Assembly (NCBI GenBank): GCA_964567285.1
Contig: CAZMLO010000005.1
Coordinates: forward strand, 55,866 to 119,865
Length of the DNA stretch: 64,000 bases
Direction: 5' to 3'
Source: an uncultured Gammaproteobacteria bacterium
GTDB lineage: Bacteria > Pseudomonadota > Gammaproteobacteria > JAIEPX01
Shown: positions 7,260 through 27,632 of the stretch, in pieces
Layout: every line of letters begins with the position of its first letter
Position numbering within the stretch: the stretch's first letter is position 1
Made by a program: the position numbers and the translations under genes
Notes under the pieces: generated by a model
Told to the model about the DNA's origin: nothing
The model's input: only the letters and a program-made list of their open reading frames with translations
Database searches by the model: none

Positions 7260-7288
7260 GATAAGTTCCTACGTGGCAAAGCCAAGAG

Positions 7289-7438
7289 TTTCTGTCTTAG
7301 ACTTACCTCTGTAGCGAATAGGTATCACGATGATAGCGGGATGGGCCATGGATGGCCCTTTGAGCGGAAGAGGTAAGTCTAAGACAGAAATTCTTGGCCT
7401 ATCCTGAGGCACCAATTCTTGGTCCATCCTGTGGCTCG
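7289..7438. repeat. Structured intergenic element: 22-bp perfect stem with 58-nt loop containing an internal GGGCCATGGATGGCCC palindrome, followed by two tandem 25-bp direct repeats
   Basis: TTTCTGTCTTAGACTTACCTCT (7289-7310) pairs with AGAGGTAAGTCTAAGACAGAAA (7369-7390); direct repeats AATTCTTGGCCTATCCTGAGGCACC / AATTCTTGGTCCATCCTGTGGCTCG at 7389-7438; lies between convergent mutL and pncA. Confidence 0.5.
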
Positions 7439-21168: not shown

Positions 21169-24100
21169 AAAAATGATCAATCTGGCATAGTTAACGCTGA
21201 AATCATGAGCCCTCACTTGAATGAGGAAATGGATAGATATGTTGTAGTTTCAAGGCTTGTTTTGGTTTACACTCATTTTTATCGGGACGCCGGTTGGGCA
21301 CAAGTACTCTCTCGAAGTGAATCGAGTTATTAACTAAGGGAAATGCCGTGAAAAAATCAAAAATGCAGCTGCATATAGAAGATATTTTTGCTCGTAAGGC
21401 AAAGTGTAGTGATAACGATACTTCTTTGGCTGATGTCCTTGAGCGAGATATAGCAACCTCATTTGCTGGAGGGAATAAATTTATCTATGAGCTACTACAA
21501 AATGCAGATGATGCGGGTAAAAATAGCAATGTCGAAGTTTTGTTCAAGTTGTTCGAATTCGCTGGGGATAACTACCTTTTATTCTCCCATACTGGCGGTG
21601 GGTTTGAAGAGGGTGATGTCAATAAAATCACTTCCTATGCTAACCAGCGTGTAGAAGAAAAGACTATTGATCCAAATAAAATTGGTTATAAGGGTATCGG
21701 ATTTAAGGCGATATTTACTATCGCGCGTTCGGTGGTGATTTTTTCTAAGGGATATCAATTCCGATTTGATAGTGAATATGAAAAGTGGAGAGAGTCTGGT
21801 AAAGGGGAAGCTTATCCTTGGCAAATTATACCCATTTGGACTGAAGTTAATGAGTTGCCTGAGCCAGTAAGAGTGAGTATGACTAATAATATCAATGTCA
21901 ATTTCTTAGTCAAAATAAAGCCAAAAAATAATATTAAGTCTGCGATGGAATTTCTCCAAAATAATACTAGGATTTTGCTTTTTTTAAGACGTGTCCGAAA
22001 ATTGACGATTGCATTTTCAGAGAAATCTCAGACAAAAATTGAATCCCGGCATCGTCCTGAGGGACAATGTGACATCTTGTTAGATGGTAAACCTTATCGT
22101 AGTTGGTTGATAAAATCCTATAACCTTAAAATACCTCCTCAAATTTCCGAGATTTTGTCAGATATGAGTTCTCATGCCTGTCCAGAAAGGTTGAAAAAAG
22201 CAGATTCAGTGACAATTACCTTCGCAGGGCTTCTTGAGAAAGGTCAGTTGGTGCATTCTGCAAATCTCGCTGTATATTGTTATCTACCCACACAAGTGGA
22301 TTGTGGCTTGCCTTTTGTGATAAATGGGGATTTTCTTCTTGATCCAGCTAGAGCCTATTTGGCAGATAACAAATGGAATGAATTTTTAATGGGCAGCTTC
22401 GCACAAAAGCAATTTGAATGGCTAGCTGAATTAAGTTCTTCCGATAACTACCGGTTACAGGTGTTAAATGTATTGAGCCATAATGCACTTACATCCCTTT
22501 CACCGGGGATTTCTGCAAGTTTTCGCAAAGAGTATGATAAGGCCTCAAAATCCATTGCATTTATACCAGGCGATGTTGCTCAAAACCCTATACTTTTATC
22601 CAAAGCTTTAATTGATGAAACCAACTTTTATACAGTTTTTCCTGAACTGACGCCCCCTAATACCTCTAAACGTCTTGTACATCCCCAATTGGAAAATCTC
22701 AAGATACTACACAAAATAGGGGTAGAGAAAATATCGTTTAAAGACTTGGTGAAATCTATAGAGATACATGCAAATGAGAATAAGAATCCTGAATTTCAAA
22801 TACGATTAATCAAATTTATTTGGCAGCATGAGAAGAAATTTGATGCATCCGCTTTTAAAGCCAAGAAGTTTTTATTATCTCAGGATGGAACCGTATTGGA
22901 GCCTTCACAACTCTATTTTCCTTCTCAGGGTTCAGTTGCAGAGTTTTCCGGATACAAGGGATTAAAATTTTTACATAATAGAATCATTAGTGCCTTTGCA
23001 GAAGACAAGAGAATATTACAATGGCTAAAGGATTTAGGTGTCAATAACTCTAGTCCTTTACAGATCTTACGTGGGTATGTTTTCGATTTAATTAAAAAAA
23101 ATGAGATAACTCAAAATAATGTGGTCGAGCTAACCCGATTTGCAATGCACGTGGCTCGCGATAATAAGGTTACAACAGCTGATTGGGAGATGCTCTCTTG
23201 CATGCCTATACTGACTGAAAGTGGATTATTGCAAAAACCCTTCGACCTTTATTTGCCTGACCTTTTACGACCATTGATCCCGTTACAAGAGGTTATGCAG
23301 AATAAGTCAATCTACGTCTCAAGAGCATATTATTCAGATATACACGCTGGAGTTCGTGATTATGAAATGCAGTCTTGGCAGCAGTATTTTATTAAGGTTG
23401 GAGTACATGCTGATATCCGCTTTGTTTCAGAAGAAGTCAGTATAGAAAAAGGGGATCAGCAGTTGGCATTTTTTCTTAAATATAGGACCTTCTTGAAAAC
23501 TACGGGTAAAACATCGAGTACAATCAAACCGTATCATAGAATACTACATTTAGTATATGCACCTTTGATGAAACATCTAACTACCAACCCTTCGTTTGCA
23601 AAAATATTTGTACAGCGATTACTGGAGCAGTGGCGTACCATAAGCTCAGGCTACCAATCTTGTTATCGTGATGGTAATTCACAGGGTAAAGACTTAAATG
23701 TCAGCTATCTGCAGTTTGTTTTTCAGACTGAGGCCTGTTTTCCGGGGTTTGATGGGAAATTGTATAAGACAACTGACTTATATGATAGGTCTTTTGAAGC
23801 ATTATCTGAATATGATAGATCCCTGGTCACGACGGATAAGGATTTGGACCTAACACCGCCTCAAATCGAATTTTTCAAGATTAAAAATCAATTGTCGTTT
23901 GATCAATGCGTCAACTTACTGAAGCGGTTTAAAGATGAGATAGAGTTAATATGTTTCGTAATCGTATGGCGTCAGTTGCTACAAATGGAAAGCGACTTAA
24001 GTGATGATCAGAGAACAAAATTATTAAGCCTAAATATTCTATTGCCTAATTCAAATCATAGGCTGTGTCCACGTGATCAAATTGCCTGTTTTGCGGTACC

Positions 24101-25853
24101 CGGTGAAGATCCTCCTTTGCACTCCGATAAGTTTTTACTCCACTTTAACGATTTCACTCAAGCAGAGATGGTGCGAATTGCCAGATTGCTTGGTGTGAAA
24201 GTGCTGGGAGAGCGAGTCAGGATTCTAGATTTTGATGGAAAAGAGCCTGTTCCCGATTTGAAGACGAGCTCCTTTTTTTGTGAACCCATTATCAAAGAGT
24301 CATCCTGGTCTTATCTGAGCCTTGCTGTTTGGTTAGAACACAGACGACGCACACTCAATGCACAGAGTCTCTGGGATACCATTATCGCAAAATTCATTCA
24401 ATTAAAGTTTTATAGAGTAGAGCGGCTCAGTTATCATTTTGGTGACAAGTCCGACACCGTTGTCAATGTGCAAGTATGTCTTGATGAAACCAAAATTTAC
24501 TATGTGAGGGACTGGAAAAGAAAGCCGTTGCGTTTAGCTGAATTTTTGAAATTACTGGGTTCGTATTTAGTCATCTCAGAGAGTACACTCTTCGAATTGG
24601 AACGTTTAATTCTTGCCTTAAACCGAAATGAAGATCCTAGAGAGTATCTGTCAGCATGGCATTTGCCAGCACATCCCAATGTTAAACAAATTTTTCCAGA
24701 GTCTGTAAAACCACAAGAACCGACTCCGGAAGGGAATGGAGCAGGGCAAAGTCAAGAAAATTTTGGGAATGAGAAGGATATCTTTGCTAATGCTTTTGAA
24801 GATGAAACATCTGACGATAATTTTCAACAAGGTGAGGAAACGGAGGAGGATTCCTATGAATTAGCGACTCCTCCGAGTGGTTCTATTAAAAGACCCTCAA
24901 CCTCTGTCAATACACCCCTCAGAAAATCAGAAACATCATCAGCCTCTTCTCAAAGAAAACCTGTTGTAGAAAATGAGGGAATTCGTTTAGTTGATGTGGA
25001 GCAATTTGATTATGAACAACTATTCAAAATTCAAGAAGCGAATTTGACGGTTAGACAATCTAGCACAACGAAAGTAAAGGTTTCTGTAGAATTATTTGAG
25101 TCTGGTTCAGCCAAACAACGGCGACCAAATGATGCCTCTAATGAAGCTGATGAAGCGAATCATTCTAATGCGGACACTGTTCCAAGAGAAACGGATAGTC
25201 CGAGAAGTCCCAAATTCTTTGAACCCAGCGCTAAACCAGCTTTAACCAAAGCTGATAAGGATAGGATCGGTCGTTGTGGAGAAAGAATGATATATTTGAG
25301 GCAACGTTATCGCTACGAAAAGAAATATCCAAAATGTACAATTATAGAAAAAGCAAATGGGTTTCAGGTATTAGGGCAAGACCATCAAGACAAACCCGTT
25401 GATATTAAAGTCGTCTGGCATAACATGGATGCAAAACGTGATGAAGATCGAGATATTACGATTGTTAAGGCCACCGGGAAGCGCTATTTAGAAGTGAAAG
25501 CAACTACAACCGATAAGCCAGAGTTTAATTGGACCGCGCGAGAAGTTGCTCTTGCTAAACGTAAGGGGGATCGTTATAAGTTATTTCATATAGTTTCAAT
25601 GAGTTCAAACCCTATTGTCACTAAAATCAAAAATCCTGCTGCCAAACTAGGGGCTGAAATGCAGATTATCGGTTATAGGGTGAAGTTTTAAGGAATAATT
25701 GTCGATATTACAAGTTTCGGTGCTTTCGTCGAACTAAATCCGGTTTGTGTGTAATGCCTGCTCCATATCACTGCACTCGAAAACGACTACTATTCCTACG
25801 ATGCGCCTCACTACCGACTCGTTGGCCAAGGCTCCGGTCGCCAATATCGCTTG
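21156..25853 (+). mobile_element. Putative integrated genomic islet (about 4.7 kb, AT-rich) at the rnr 3' end carrying a single giant gene; no integrase retained
   Basis: Bounded by duplicated rnr 3' segments with an identical 68-bp core; GC and codon usage visibly lower than flanking genes. Confidence 0.5.
21348..25691 (+). CDS. Giant protein: N-terminal sacsin/NOV-like GHKL (HATPase_c_3-type) ATPase + long uncharacterised middle + acidic disordered linker + C-terminal DUF3883 (restriction-endonuclease-fold) domain
   Basis: YELLQNADDAG, LLFSHTGGGFEEGDV and KIGYKGIGFKAIFTIARSVVIFSKGYQFRFD match the sacsin/NO-VEIN GHKL boxes; C-term RIGRCGERMIYL...DIKVVW...YLEVKATT...REVALAKRKGDRYKLFHI matches the DUF3883 pattern. 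Confidence 0.7.
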   Translation: MKKSKMQLHIEDIFARKAKCSDNDTSLADVLERDIATSFAGGNKFIYELLQNADDAGKNSNVEVLFKLFEFAGDNYLLFSHTGGGFEEGDVNKITSYANQRVEEKTIDPNKIGYKGIGFKAIFTIARSVVIFSKGYQFRFDSEYEKWRESGKGEAYPWQIIPIWTEVNELPEPVRVSMTNNINVNFLVKIKPKNNIKSAMEFLQNNTRILLFLRRVRKLTIAFSEKSQTKIESRHRPEGQCDILLDGKPYRSWLIKSYNLKIPPQISEILSDMSSHACPERLKKADSVTITFAGLLEKGQLVHSANLAVYCYLPTQVDCGLPFVINGDFLLDPARAYLADNKWNEFLMGSFAQKQFEWLAELSSSDNYRLQVLNVLSHNALTSLSPGISASFRKEYDKASKSIAFIPGDVAQNPILLSKALIDETNFYTVFPELTPPNTSKRLVHPQLENLKILHKIGVEKISFKDLVKSIEIHANENKNPEFQIRLIKFIWQHEKKFDASAFKAKKFLLSQDGTVLEPSQLYFPSQGSVAEFSGYKGLKFLHNRIISAFAEDKRILQWLKDLGVNNSSPLQILRGYVFDLIKKNEITQNNVVELTRFAMHVARDNKVTTADWEMLSCMPILTESGLLQKPFDLYLPDLLRPLIPLQEVMQNKSIYVSRAYYSDIHAGVRDYEMQSWQQYFIKVGVHADIRFVSEEVSIEKGDQQLAFFLKYRTFLKTTGKTSSTIKPYHRILHLVYAPLMKHLTTNPSFAKIFVQRLLEQWRTISSGYQSCYRDGNSQGKDLNVSYLQFVFQTEACFPGFDGKLYKTTDLYDRSFEALSEYDRSLVTTDKDLDLTPPQIEFFKIKNQLSFDQCVNLLKRFKDEIELICFVIVWRQLLQMESDLSDDQRTKLLSLNILLPNSNHRLCPRDQIACFAVPGEDPPLHSDKFLLHFNDFTQAEMVRIARLLGVKVLGERVRILDFDGKEPVPDLKTSSFFCEPIIKESSWSYLSLAVWLEHRRRTLNAQSLWDTIIAKFIQLKFYRVERLSYHFGDKSDTVVNVQVCLDETKIYYVRDWKRKPLRLAEFLKLLGSYLVISESTLFELERLILALNRNEDPREYLSAWHLPAHPNVKQIFPESVKPQEPTPEGNGAGQSQENFGNEKDIFANAFEDETSDDNFQQGEETEEDSYELATPPSGSIKRPSTSVNTPLRKSETSSASSQRKPVVENEGIRLVDVEQFDYEQLFKIQEANLTVRQSSTTKVKVSVELFESGSAKQRRPNDASNEADEANHSNADTVPRETDSPRSPKFFEPSAKPALTKADKDRIGRCGERMIYLRQRYRYEKKYPKCTIIEKANGFQVLGQDHQDKPVDIKVVWHNMDAKRDEDRDITIVKATGKRYLEVKATTTDKPEFNWTAREVALAKRKGDRYKLFHIVSMSSNPIVTKIKNPAAKLGAEMQIIGYRVKF

Positions 25854-25931
25854 GGCGACCCAATATTTGTCCAAGTCGCCAGAGTAGATGTTGATGAGCG
25901 TCAAATAGATTTTGTTTTAGCCAAAAAATAA
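25692..25931 (+). pseudogene. Displaced/duplicated rnr 3' end fragment (candidate attR); frameshifted remnant
   Basis: Encodes GIIVDITSFGAFVELNPVCV*...HITALENDYYSYDAPHYRLVGQGSGRQYRLGDPIFVQVARVDVDERQIDFVLAKK, near-identical to the RNase R S1-domain C-terminus but with an internal stop/frameshift; begins directly after the stop codon of the giant gene. Confidence 0.8.
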
Positions 25932-25945
25932 ATTTTGTAACATCG

Positions 25946-26362
25946 CTATAAAAATGGATTAATTAAATCTAATTCAGTGTTATCAAAGTCGCTAATGTTG
26001 CGTGTGGCTACTGTGCAATTATGCGCACGGGCTATCGCTGCAATTTGTCCATCAGCAATGCTCATTGGTTTGCCCAGTATTTTCCTTTGGCTCATAATGG
26101 TTCCATATTGATGAGCGGCTACTTCATCGAAGGTGAAAATACGGTACTCAAAAGCTTCACGTACAACACTATTAAAGGCCTTTTCCAAATTCTTGCGTCT
26201 CTTTCCGGAGGGTAAAACATTAATTCTGTAGGCTAGCTCTGCAATGGTGATCGTGGAAATATAAAGATGCATAATATTTTGCTGATCTATCCAAGTTACT
26301 ACCTTAGGGTCGGGTGCAGGTTTCATCATCTCAGAAATAATGTTGGTATCAATCAGTATCAT
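25946..26362 (-). CDS. vapC: PIN-domain toxin VapC/FitB-like
   Basis: MILIDTNIISEMMKP... with conserved acidic residues of the PIN fold; overlaps the upstream antitoxin gene by 14 nt. Confidence 0.75.
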   Translation of the reverse strand: MILIDTNIISEMMKPAPDPKVVTWIDQQNIMHLYISTITIAELAYRINVLPSGKRRKNLEKAFNSVVREAFEYRIFTFDEVAAHQYGTIMSQRKILGKPMSIADGQIAAIARAHNCTVATRNISDFDNTELDLINPFL

Positions 26363-26594
26363 CAGAAAAATCCATAGGTTCATGTGGCTTGCGAGGATTA
26401 ATCAATTCTAAATCGACTCCATTTTCAGCACCAAAATGTTTGCGGAAAATGTCGCTGATACGATCTGGGGTCTTAACAGCCAAGATAAGAATTCGCCGTA
26501 CTTCTTCTTCCATGGGGACACCGTGCCTTGCCGCTCTTATCCTTAATTGCTCATAGACGCTGTCATCTAGCTTTCTTACACTTAAGCTTGCCAT
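26349..26594 (-). CDS. vapB: Antitoxin VapB/FitA-like (ribbon-helix-helix)
   Basis: 81 aa MASLSVRKLDDSVYEQLRIRAARHGVPMEEEVRRIL typical of FitA/StbC-type antitoxins. Confidence 0.65.
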   Translation of the reverse strand: MASLSVRKLDDSVYEQLRIRAARHGVPMEEEVRRILILAVKTPDRISDIFRKHFGAENGVDLELINPRKPHEPMDFSDDTD

Positions 26595-26624
26595 TTGTTT
26601 AACTCCTAACTAACTTTATACTTA

Positions 26625-26646
26625 AATGCTAGCATGCGCTAGCATT
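26625..26646. promoter_or_regulatory. 22-bp perfect palindrome AATGCTAGCATGCGCTAGCATT about 30 nt upstream of vapB: candidate vapBC operator
   Basis: Seen in sequence; TA antitoxin complexes typically autoregulate via such palindromes in their own promoter. Confidence 0.5.
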
Positions 26647-26863
26647 GCTGTCAAGTGCTATCAATAATATATTCGGCTGCTCAAGTCTTAATTTTCAGCG
26701 CTCTTTCATTTCTCGCTACGATTGTTTGTGCAATATCCGGGTTTAATTTTATCAACAGATGCCATATTTCGGGAATTGTATTAGATTGTAAAACCTGGAT
26801 TTACAAGGTAATATGAAATTATTAGCGGTTCCCGCTATACACTACGCGATGGGGGTTTATTAA

Positions 26864-26961
26864 GGGGGAGAAGCGCAGCTCTCCCCCTTAACTGGTTAAT
26901 GTAAACTTTGTTTACATTAACCATCAATAAATGGGAAGGAGATTCCCGCGCTAGCGGGAAC
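26864..26961. promoter_or_regulatory. Cluster of three hairpins upstream of yhhQ-tgt
   Basis: Three palindromes within 100 bp immediately 5' of the yhhQ start: GGGGGAG-N10-CTCCCCC (26864-26887); a perfect 13-bp inverted repeat GGTTAATGTAAAC-TTT-GTTTACATTAACC (26894-26922); and TTCCCGCGCTAGCGGGAAC (26943-26961). Confidence 0.4.
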
Positions 26962-26975
26962 TCCTGTGAACTTAT

Positions 26976-27632
26976 ATGAATGAGCTAATTTTTATATTAC
27001 AGGTAGTGGCAGTTGTTGGGGCTGTCATGGTAGGGCGGCGGTTAGATAAAGAGGCGCTGATGGTGCTGGCAGTTCTGCTGGCGGTCTTTGCTAACTTCTT
27101 TGTGCTCAAACAAATCGACATCATGGGTTGGACGGTCACCTGCGCCGATGCCTATGTGGTCGGTCATCTTTTGTGTTTAAATTGGCTTCAGCAAGAATAT
27201 GGTAAGGCGTTCGCGAATAAAACTGTTCAGCTCAGTTTTGGAGCAATGCTCGTTTTTGCTATCTTGTCTCAGATTCATTTAATCTTTGTGCCAAGCTCGG
27301 TTGATGTTACTCAGGAACACTATCAGGCCTTACTGGGGATTGCTCCTCGACTTCTGCTGGCCTCCTTAGCCACCTTTTATTTGGTGCAAAGGCTCGATAT
27401 TTATTTATTCGGTAAAATCCTCGATTGGATGCCACAAACAGCTTGGAAAATTCGTTCCGCGATTTCGCTTCTGATCTCTCAGGCAGTTGATACGTTGCTC
27501 TTCACTTTATTAGGGCTCTATGGGGTTGTGGATAATTGGCTGGCGATTTTCTGGATGAGTTTTGTGGTCAAGTGTGCTGTGATCGGGCTGATGGCAATGA
27601 CGTGGAGAGAGAAGAAGGTCTATGAAGTTTGA
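26976..27632 (+). CDS. yhhQ: Queuosine-precursor transporter family protein (DUF165/VUT, YhhQ-like)
   Basis: ASLATFYLVQRLDIYLFGKI and ISQAVDTLLFTLLGL align with the E. coli YhhQ segments ASFMAYALGQILDVHVFNRL and NVSDTLAFFFIAF; directly upstream of and overlapping tgt. Confidence 0.6.
   Translation: MNELIFILQVVAVVGAVMVGRRLDKEALMVLAVLLAVFANFFVLKQIDIMGWTVTCADAYVVGHLLCLNWLQQEYGKAFANKTVQLSFGAMLVFAILSQIHLIFVPSSVDVTQEHYQALLGIAPRLLLASLATFYLVQRLDIYLFGKILDWMPQTAWKIRSAISLLISQAVDTLLFTLLGLYGVVDNWLAIFWMSFVVKCAVIGLMAMTWREKKVYEV

Follow-up and report, generated by a model that had tools for sequence, protein, structure and literature searches.

The window analysed in the present study is a stretch of 64,000 nt from an uncultured gammaproteobacterium (GenBank assembly GCA_964567285.1, contig CAZMLO010000005.1, positions 55,866 to 119,865 of the forward strand), and the gene of interest is an open reading frame (ORF) at 21348..25691 (+) that encodes a protein of 1447 aa. 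We consider it quite probable that this gene is tmtA, the single gene of the anti-phage defence system Tiamat, in the subfamily described by the PADLOC profile PDLC03972, and that horizontal transfer brought it, on an islet of 4.77 kb with no other gene, to a Coxiella-related gammaproteobacterium, by recombination into the RNase R gene rnr at its 3' end. By its sequence, the protein is a member of the Tiamat family as defence-annotation tools define this family, in a subfamily that differs from the experimentally tested one. Since Tiamat is a validated defence system without a published mechanism, an anatomical description of any of its members is useful.

Assignment to the TmtA family

The assignment is based on a match to PDLC03972 over the full length of the protein (E=2.2e-190, 633.6 bits; residues 7-1435 aligned with profile positions 4-1289 of 1302), and seven further TmtA profiles of PADLOC matched with E values from 2.7e-45 to 4.9e-07. 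A protein search with TmtA returned 1562 homologues at E<1e-5, and one homologue (P0002) is 61% identical. When a genome collection was scanned with the single protein, no relative was obtained; an alignment-based scan of the collection did find relatives. The ORF, which has a GTG start, was present in the ORF list exactly as an earlier reading made from the letters of this DNA (hereafter the sequence-only reading) had described it, and the motifs quoted in that reading were all present. In the public annotation of an identical protein (P0001), the start is placed at ATG 21363, five codons downstream, which gives a length of 1442 aa. The sequence-only reading had also leaned towards anti-phage defence, which was right in view of the match to TmtA of Tiamat, and had known of no named system with this exact architecture, which was wrong given the full-length PADLOC match and the fact that Tiamat already had its name. 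The gene does not represent a new kind of system, the subfamily being already represented in PADLOC.

The name Tiamat does not appear in the main text of the preprint by Millman et al. (2022); the information sits in its supplements, in which the tested candidates were annotated as "Hsp90, DUF3684, DUF3883" and TmtA is the single gene of the system. TmtA of Bacillus cereus FORC_005 (IMG 2641244160, 1590 aa) is given there as "Verified", and Table S1 lists 0.875 as the defence score of a DUF3883 cluster of approximately 1227 aa. The list of Tiamat instances from 2022 (Table S20) contains no Legionellales or Coxiella entry, and the present locus modestly widens the host range of Tiamat by a Coxiella-like lineage that the original catalogue does not contain. 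According to the later literature, Tiamat is almost always chromosomal; it has been placed among the single-gene PD-(D/E)XK systems (10.1101/2024.10.26.620412), and its mechanism is given as unknown (PMC12926258, PMC10482375).

The verified B. cereus protein resembles the present one in being the product of a single gene and in the order of its parts, namely, an Hsp90-like GHKL domain at the N terminus and a DUF3883 nuclease fold at the C terminus, with a long region between them. A BLASTP comparison with its 399 N-terminal residues gave 26% identity (E=3e-17). The best PADLOC profile for these residues was PDLC03964, in contrast to PDLC03972 here; the present protein is approximately 140 aa shorter, and GHKL motif II reads HTGGGF instead of NNGNPF. 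Segments of the present protein are collinear with PDLC03964 (the N-terminal segment at positions 50-805, residues 361-800 at 392-804, and residues 1290-1447 at 1402-1519), whereas residues 800-1110 match PDLC03972 only.

Domain organization of the protein

The protein is made up of four parts (Table 1). Residues 1-363 were assigned to a GHKL (Bergerat) domain followed by an Hsp90-middle-like domain because of profile matches and of structural alignments obtained with Foldseek. Residues 44-131 matched NCBIfam NF047352 ("sacsin N-terminal ATP-binding-like") with 64.2 bits, above the cutoff of 50, and residues 33-142 matched Pfam SACS with 31.9 bits, slightly below the cutoff of 32.8. A profile built from 37 family sequences and compared with the PDB matched the crystal structures of sacsin SR1 first (5v44-5v47, E ~4e-7), with Hsp90 N-domains next. 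Residues 1-1110 were modelled confidently by AlphaFold (predicted local distance difference test score, pLDDT, 90.3), and Foldseek matched the model to full-length TRAP1/Hsp90, MORC2/3/4, SMCHD1, and sacsin SR1.

Table 1. Features of the tmtA locus, with positions in the window
Feature	Position	Strand	Basis
Intact rnr (RNase R)	18997-21168	+	Pfam
Left repeat copy, 3' end (S1 domain) of intact rnr	20924..21161	+	repeat search, Pfam
Spacer from rnr stop to tmtA start, 179 nt	21169..21347	+	sequence
tmtA, single gene of Tiamat-type system	21348..25691	+	PADLOC PDLC03972, full length
GHKL (Bergerat) domain and Hsp90-middle-like domain, residues 1-363	21348..22436	+	NF047352, SACS, PDB profile matches, Foldseek
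Folded alpha/beta middle region with related ~100-aa modules, residues 364-1104	22437..24659	+	AlphaFold, hhalign
Acidic, Ser/Pro/Gln-rich low-complexity linker, residues 1105-1300	24660..25247	+	composition
DUF3883/NOV_C, PD-(D/E)xK nuclease fold, residues 1301-1447	25248..25688	+	Pfam, AlphaFold, alignment
Right repeat copy, displaced non-functional rnr 3' remnant	25690..25927	+	87% identity
vapC (PIN)	25946-26383	-	Pfam PIN E=8.1e-14
vapB (FitA-like RHH antitoxin)	26349-26594	-	FitA-like_RHH E=5.7e-16

The invariance of residues was scored in an alignment of 80 homologues. In motif I (E48-LLQ-N52-A-D54-D55), E48, Q51, N52, and D55 are invariant, and, by the GHKL motif, E48 is predicted to be the catalytic Glu and N52 the Mg-binding Asn. 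In motif III (G113-Y-K115-G116-I-G118-F119-K120), which corresponds to the glycine-rich lid, G113, K115, G118, F119, and K120 are invariant, and G116 is nearly so. Motif II (S-H81-T-G83-G-G-F86), in which H81, G83, and F86 are invariant, does not conform to the canonical DxGxG with its adenine-binding Asp. Aligned by hand to the D-x-G-x-G-M motif of Hsp90, His81 occupies what we take to be the position of this Asp; in the HMMER alignment to sacsin, the register is displaced by one residue, and the canonical Asp is missing in either register. The invariant His in place of the Asp is a trait of the subfamily that was brought out in the present study, and, with this replacement, ATP use by the GHKL module is plausible rather than established. 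Sacsin itself has an Asn at the equivalent of Asp79 of Hsp90 (PMC9880540). R335, which is also invariant, lies in the AlphaFold model in a loop between a strand (324-327) and a long helix (342-363), and, according to PMC9880540, the catalytic Arg has the same strand-loop-helix placement in Hsp90 (R380) and in sacsin (R474); R335 may be the catalytic Arg supplied by the Hsp90-middle-like domain.

The sequence-only reading had left approximately 900 residues between the two terminal domains as being of unknown function. This description may now be refined, as the part up to residue 363 belongs to the GHKL and Hsp90-middle-like domains, and residues 364-1104 are confidently folded (pLDDT mostly >85) and contain modules related to each other. 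Each module of approximately 100 aa consists of a beta-hairpin followed by helices; in hhalign comparisons, residues 385-500 matched 490-600 with a probability of 70%, and residues 490-600 matched 600-700 with a probability of 94%. In the DNA, the tandem modules occupy 22500-23450 of the window (residues ~385-700), and the beta-hairpin is of the type "hhPxxxGxhxxPxxhY". No published description of this repeat of the middle region was found. The middle region may act as a scaffold for target binding or dimerization, and the internal repeats are located in what is presumed to be the sensor region.

The acidic, Ser-rich linker noted in the sequence-only reading upstream of the nuclease domain was borne out by the composition of residues 1105-1300 (18% D/E and 44% S/T/P/Q/N/G). 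The equivalent linker ranges in length from 29 to 309 aa in 37 family members and from 172 to 201 aa in the closest clade; we take it to be a flexible tether.

At the C terminus, residues 1355-1426 matched Pfam NOV_C/DUF3883 (E=1.7e-12), a domain that Anantharaman et al. (2013) named as a novel restriction-endonuclease domain (PMC3710099), and residues 1280-1447 were modelled by AlphaFold with a pLDDT of 93.9. The candidate catalytic residues are E1312 (GRCGE), D1369 (RDITI), and E1382 and K1384 (LEVKAT), which most members of the family conserve, and the E/D/E-K set of the predicted nuclease is intact in the present protein. The profile searches and the AlphaFold models, with an Hsp90-like fold at the N terminus and a PD-(D/E)xK fold at the C terminus, agree with the pairing of a sacsin-type GHKL ATPase and a DUF3883 nuclease fold that the sequence-only reading had proposed. 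Candidates for mutation are E48, N52, H81, and R335 for the presumed switch, and E1312, D1369, E1382, and K1384 for the nuclease.

The islet and its insertion into rnr

A direct repeat of 238 nt with 87% identity between its copies brackets tmtA. The left copy is part of the intact rnr gene; the right copy starts at the stop codon of tmtA and contains an in-frame TAA. Between the copies, 22 codon differences are synonymous and 10 are non-synonymous, and 25 of the 37 substitutions are at third positions. Near the 3' end, a block of 66 nt (21088-21153) is identical in both, and the first, diverged 164 nt are 81% identical between the copies and 71-77% identical to rnr of relatives. The divergence is mostly synonymous, and we interpret the copies as alleles of rnr from two lineages, in each of which purifying selection acted on the gene as it diverged. 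One of the two, either the left or the right, probably arrived together with tmtA; recombination or gene conversion would have taken place within the identical block of 66 nt.

Between the repeats, tmtA is the only non-nested ORF of at least 50 aa, and no integrase or recombinase gene was found among ORFs of this size. The GC content of the insert is 0.38-0.41, and that of the flanks is 0.42-0.47. In a metagenomic relative (L009), the RNase R of which is 87% identical and which has the same upstream order (hflK-hflC-purA-small ORF-rnr), rnr is followed by queC and a TPR-methyltransferase gene, with tmtA and vapBC being absent from the site. The repeat, the sole ORF, and the site in L009 without tmtA all bear out the single-gene integrated islet of the sequence-only reading, and document an integrase-free acquisition of one gene that is marked by a duplicated and diverged 3' end of rnr. 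A comparison based on relatives of Tgt was uninformative on the empty site, as their genomes are rearranged upstream of Vut_1-tgt, and the relatives of RNase R gave the usable comparison. No meaningful direct repeats of at least 25 nt flanked the tmtA homologues in two of the related loci (L002 and L004), and, thus, the duplication of rnr is specific to this locus rather than an integration signature of the family. A plasmid or phage origin was considered and rejected, with only partial relatives being found on 10 plasmid records and one phage record.

Regarding expression, a Shine-Dalgarno-like motif (AAGGGA) is located 7-12 nt upstream of GTG 21348. A scan for consensus promoters and terminators gave nothing between rnr and tmtA, and counts of such signals around the gene did not exceed the expectation from shuffled sequences; since none of these signals separates the two genes, read-through from rnr and co-transcription with tmtA are possible.

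Upstream of rnr, the window has its sole tRNA gene, tRNA-Leu(CAG) at 18320-18406 (-), which is not at the border of the islet and, therefore, is not the integration site. Between this tRNA gene and rnr, a conserved ORF of 116 aa (18536-18886, -) is syntenic in relatives and has no Pfam or PADLOC match.

Genomic neighbourhood of tmtA and its homologues

Downstream of the islet, the vapBC toxin-antitoxin module pointed out in the sequence-only reading is real according to the Pfam matches of its PIN and FitA-like RHH products. The two ORFs overlap at 26349-26383, the pair lies outside the repeat-bounded insert, and neither vapB nor vapC has a PADLOC match. The order then continues with a Vut_1 transporter gene and tgt. 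Housekeeping genes make up the remaining 55 ORFs of the window, for which PADLOC gave only weak, generic matches, and the scan did not reveal another credible defence system in the window. DpdA is TGT-like, and a match to the DpdA profile (E=2.7e-9) is most likely to be the Tgt gene.

The sequence-only reading had regarded the context as typical of defence islands, which was not supported at this locus, the surroundings being housekeeping genes and the five closest homologues (35-62% identity) also being lone inserts among housekeeping genes, at different sites. One of them is located between an EVE-domain gene and a major facilitator superfamily transporter gene (L002), and another adjoins the ATP synthase operon (L004). 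In two genomes that are syntenic with each other (L092/L093, 7167-12482), the homologue adjoins a gene for a eukaryote-type Ras-family small GTPase, and, in a further locus (L094, 8001-13916), the homologue and an ORF of 485 aa without a Pfam match interrupt the bat (VWA/TPR/BatD) operon. Apart from the syntenic pair, the closest clade has different flanking genes from locus to locus, and no partner gene is conserved.

A different picture was obtained when the neighbours of 15 homologues of the same subfamily were listed, and the association of homologues with defence genes that the sequence-only reading had proposed as a check holds to this extent, in contrast to the locus here and the closest clade. 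The defence neighbours of these homologues comprise MkoA-like helicases, MADS mad2, type I/IIG restriction-modification systems, Cas12a, DruE, PD-T4-6, and HEC-06, and integrases and PRTRC genes are also present. The homologues with such neighbours are more distant members of the subfamily from Bacteroidota and Nostoc.

The best named relatives of the RNase R encoded here are from Coxiella burnetii (60% identity) and Candidatus Coxiella mudrowiae (58%), and metagenomic relatives reach 80-88%. The TmtA family as a whole has members in Bacteroidota, Firmicutes, Cyanobacteria, and free-living Gammaproteobacteria. Distant relatives of TmtA were also observed in lineages known for an intracellular lifestyle, namely, in metagenome-assembled genomes of Chlamydiales (L063, OY969414.1), Legionella sp. 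(L046), and Legionellaceae (L012), and a comparison of defence repertoires across such bacteria might be worthwhile. Two full-length TmtA-like proteins with SACS and NOV_C domains and 27% identity (P0043 and P0090) are annotated on the same 832-kb contig in an assembly of the placozoan Trichoplax sp. H2, which may represent either transfer into a eukaryote or the sequence of bacterial symbionts.

Relation to other GHKL and DUF3883 proteins

The N-terminal domain of TmtA is of the same sacsin-type, Hsp90-like kind as that of sacsin SR1/SIRPT (PDB 5v44-5v47, NCBIfam NF047352), and, as judged from the AlphaFold model, the Arg-bearing, putatively catalytic loop, with a strand before it and a long helix after it, is also similar to that of sacsin (PMC9880540). 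The C-terminal domain is common to TmtA and the plant protein NO VEIN (NOV), as the Pfam name NOV_C indicates. Sacsin differs in having three modules together with UbL, DnaJ, and HEPN domains and in lacking NOV_C, whereas TmtA combines one module with a nuclease fold; moreover, sacsin and NOV come from eukaryotes, in which they act as a chaperone or in development, and the present TmtA is bacterial. Membership among the eukaryotic sacsin/NO VEIN proteins was considered and rejected, as the SACS match is under the cutoff and both the architecture and the closest relatives are those of bacterial TmtA, with only domains being shared.

The coupling of a GHKL ATPase to a nuclease in a conflict system is shared with prokaryotic MORC and paraMORC, and MORC2, MORC3, and MORC4 were among the structural matches. 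Prokaryotic MORC systems, treated by Iyer, Abhiman and Aravind in 2008, are reportedly multi-gene operons with separate nuclease, helicase, or methylase partners and the canonical DxGxG. Unlike them, TmtA is a single polypeptide from the sacsin/Hsp90 branch without a conserved neighbour. In Snf2-helicase-DUF3883 fusions from restriction-modification-like and defence loci, an NTPase motor is similarly fused to the DUF3883 restriction-endonuclease-like domain (PMC3710099); the NTPase in these proteins is a superfamily 2 helicase, not a GHKL module.

Possible mode of action and alternative explanations

If the protein acts as a Tiamat effector of defence, its N-terminal Hsp90/MORC-like module may work as a nucleotide-driven switch or clamp, as in Hsp90, MORC, and MutL, and would probably dimerize. 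Its parts would be Glu48 for catalysis, Asn52 for Mg binding, the lid rich in glycine, and Arg335 of the middle domain. The folded, repeat-containing middle region would sense an infection cue, which may be foreign DNA or a phage protein, and the resulting conformational change would release or activate the nuclease on its tether, which would then cut nucleic acid. The invader may be destroyed or the infection aborted as a consequence.

Several points weigh against assigning the present protein a role in defence. The verified TmtA is a distant relative from another subfamily, and an Enterobacter Tiamat candidate of 1429 aa was marked "x", not verified, in the same screen (Millman et al., 2022); therefore, defence activity cannot be assumed for every member of TmtA. 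Pfam DUF3684, which is part of the annotation of the tested candidates, did not match the protein at E<=1 despite the collinearity of residues 361-800 with the profile of the verified subfamily. Motif II lacks the canonical Asp, and ATP binding by sacsin-type domains is itself a matter of debate (PMC9880540). The locus and those of the five closest homologues are outside defence islands, and a search for papers on the trigger, target, or mode of action of Tiamat found catalogue-type mentions only.

An alternative is that the protein is a resident factor of genome maintenance, in which a MORC/MutL-like GHKL clamp and a resolvase-like nuclease serve recombination, repair, or chromosome compaction. 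The synteny of the gene in L092 and L093 suggests vertical retention, and the housekeeping neighbours at the present locus also fit such a role. Nevertheless, the distribution is patchy, insertion sites vary among close relatives, the gene is absent from the syntenic site in L009, and the locus has foreign-like GC and a flanking duplication. Moreover, one member of the family has a verified anti-phage phenotype, and other members of the subfamily adjoin defence and mobile-element genes. We consequently regard a maintenance role as unlikely.

It is also improbable that tmtA is a recently acquired passenger without a current function in its host. The gene stands alone and has no recognizable promoter of its own, one family member gave no defence when tested, and an intracellular lifestyle, if real, would lower exposure to phages. 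Against this, the frame of 4.3 kb is intact, and all family-invariant residues are retained in both predicted catalytic modules, whereas the neighbouring rnr remnant already carries a stop codon; because the remnant decayed while the frame of tmtA remained intact, selection appears to have maintained the gene over the same period.

The sequence-only reading had offered as an alternative a eukaryote-derived effector. In a fuller form of this idea, an intracellular bacterium would secrete a mimic of NOV, sacsin, or MORC into its host cell, where the protein would act on host DNA or chromatin. This explanation would suit the Coxiella-like host lineage, the ankyrin, Sel1, DUF5630, and Ras-family GTPase genes close to tmtA homologues in related genomes, the unusually long disordered linker of the clade, its position outside defence islands, and the occurrence of the domain pair in Trichoplax. 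The best full-length match is, however, to a bacterial TmtA profile, the family is broadly bacterial, and the eukaryotic members, at 27% identity, are no closer than generic bacterial ones. Dot/Icm substrates usually end in a free, Glu-rich C-terminal tail, whereas the last residues of the present protein are modelled as a strand within the folded nuclease domain (pLDDT 92-96), and no secretion-system gene was found within the 64-kb window. The effector alternative thus received no positive support and is very unlikely. Equally slight is the chance that the Coxiella/Legionella-like clade was exapted from defence to a host-directed nuclease or chromatin effector, as its shared linker of approximately 170-200 aa, its lone position among housekeeping or eukaryote-like genes, and the lack of defence neighbours might suggest, or that the His-type pocket senses a ligand other than ATP. 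Membership in the Tiamat family, with a probable function in defence, is the reading that we prefer to each of these.

Other features of the window

The intergenic region between vapB and the Vut_1 gene contains a nested palindromic element of 134 nt (26828-26961), in which perfect outer arms of 10 nt (GTTCCCGCTA / TAGCGGGAAC) surround two perfect hairpins with stems of 12 and 14 bp. Apart from one site with one mismatch, the arm was not found elsewhere in the window, and no credible Rfam family was found in the intergenic region 26590-26990. The element could be a small element similar to miniature inverted-repeat transposable elements or repetitive extragenic palindromes; alternatively, it could form a structured leader for the transporter gene.

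At a greater distance from the islet, an Rfam match to the TwoAYGGAY RNA is located at 7274-7405 (+), with 44.6 bits against a gathering score of 43 bits (E=6e-4). The strongest AT skew in the window (+0.31, with a GC content of 0.49) was observed at 50001-51000, within an ORF of 423 aa at 49754-51025 (-).

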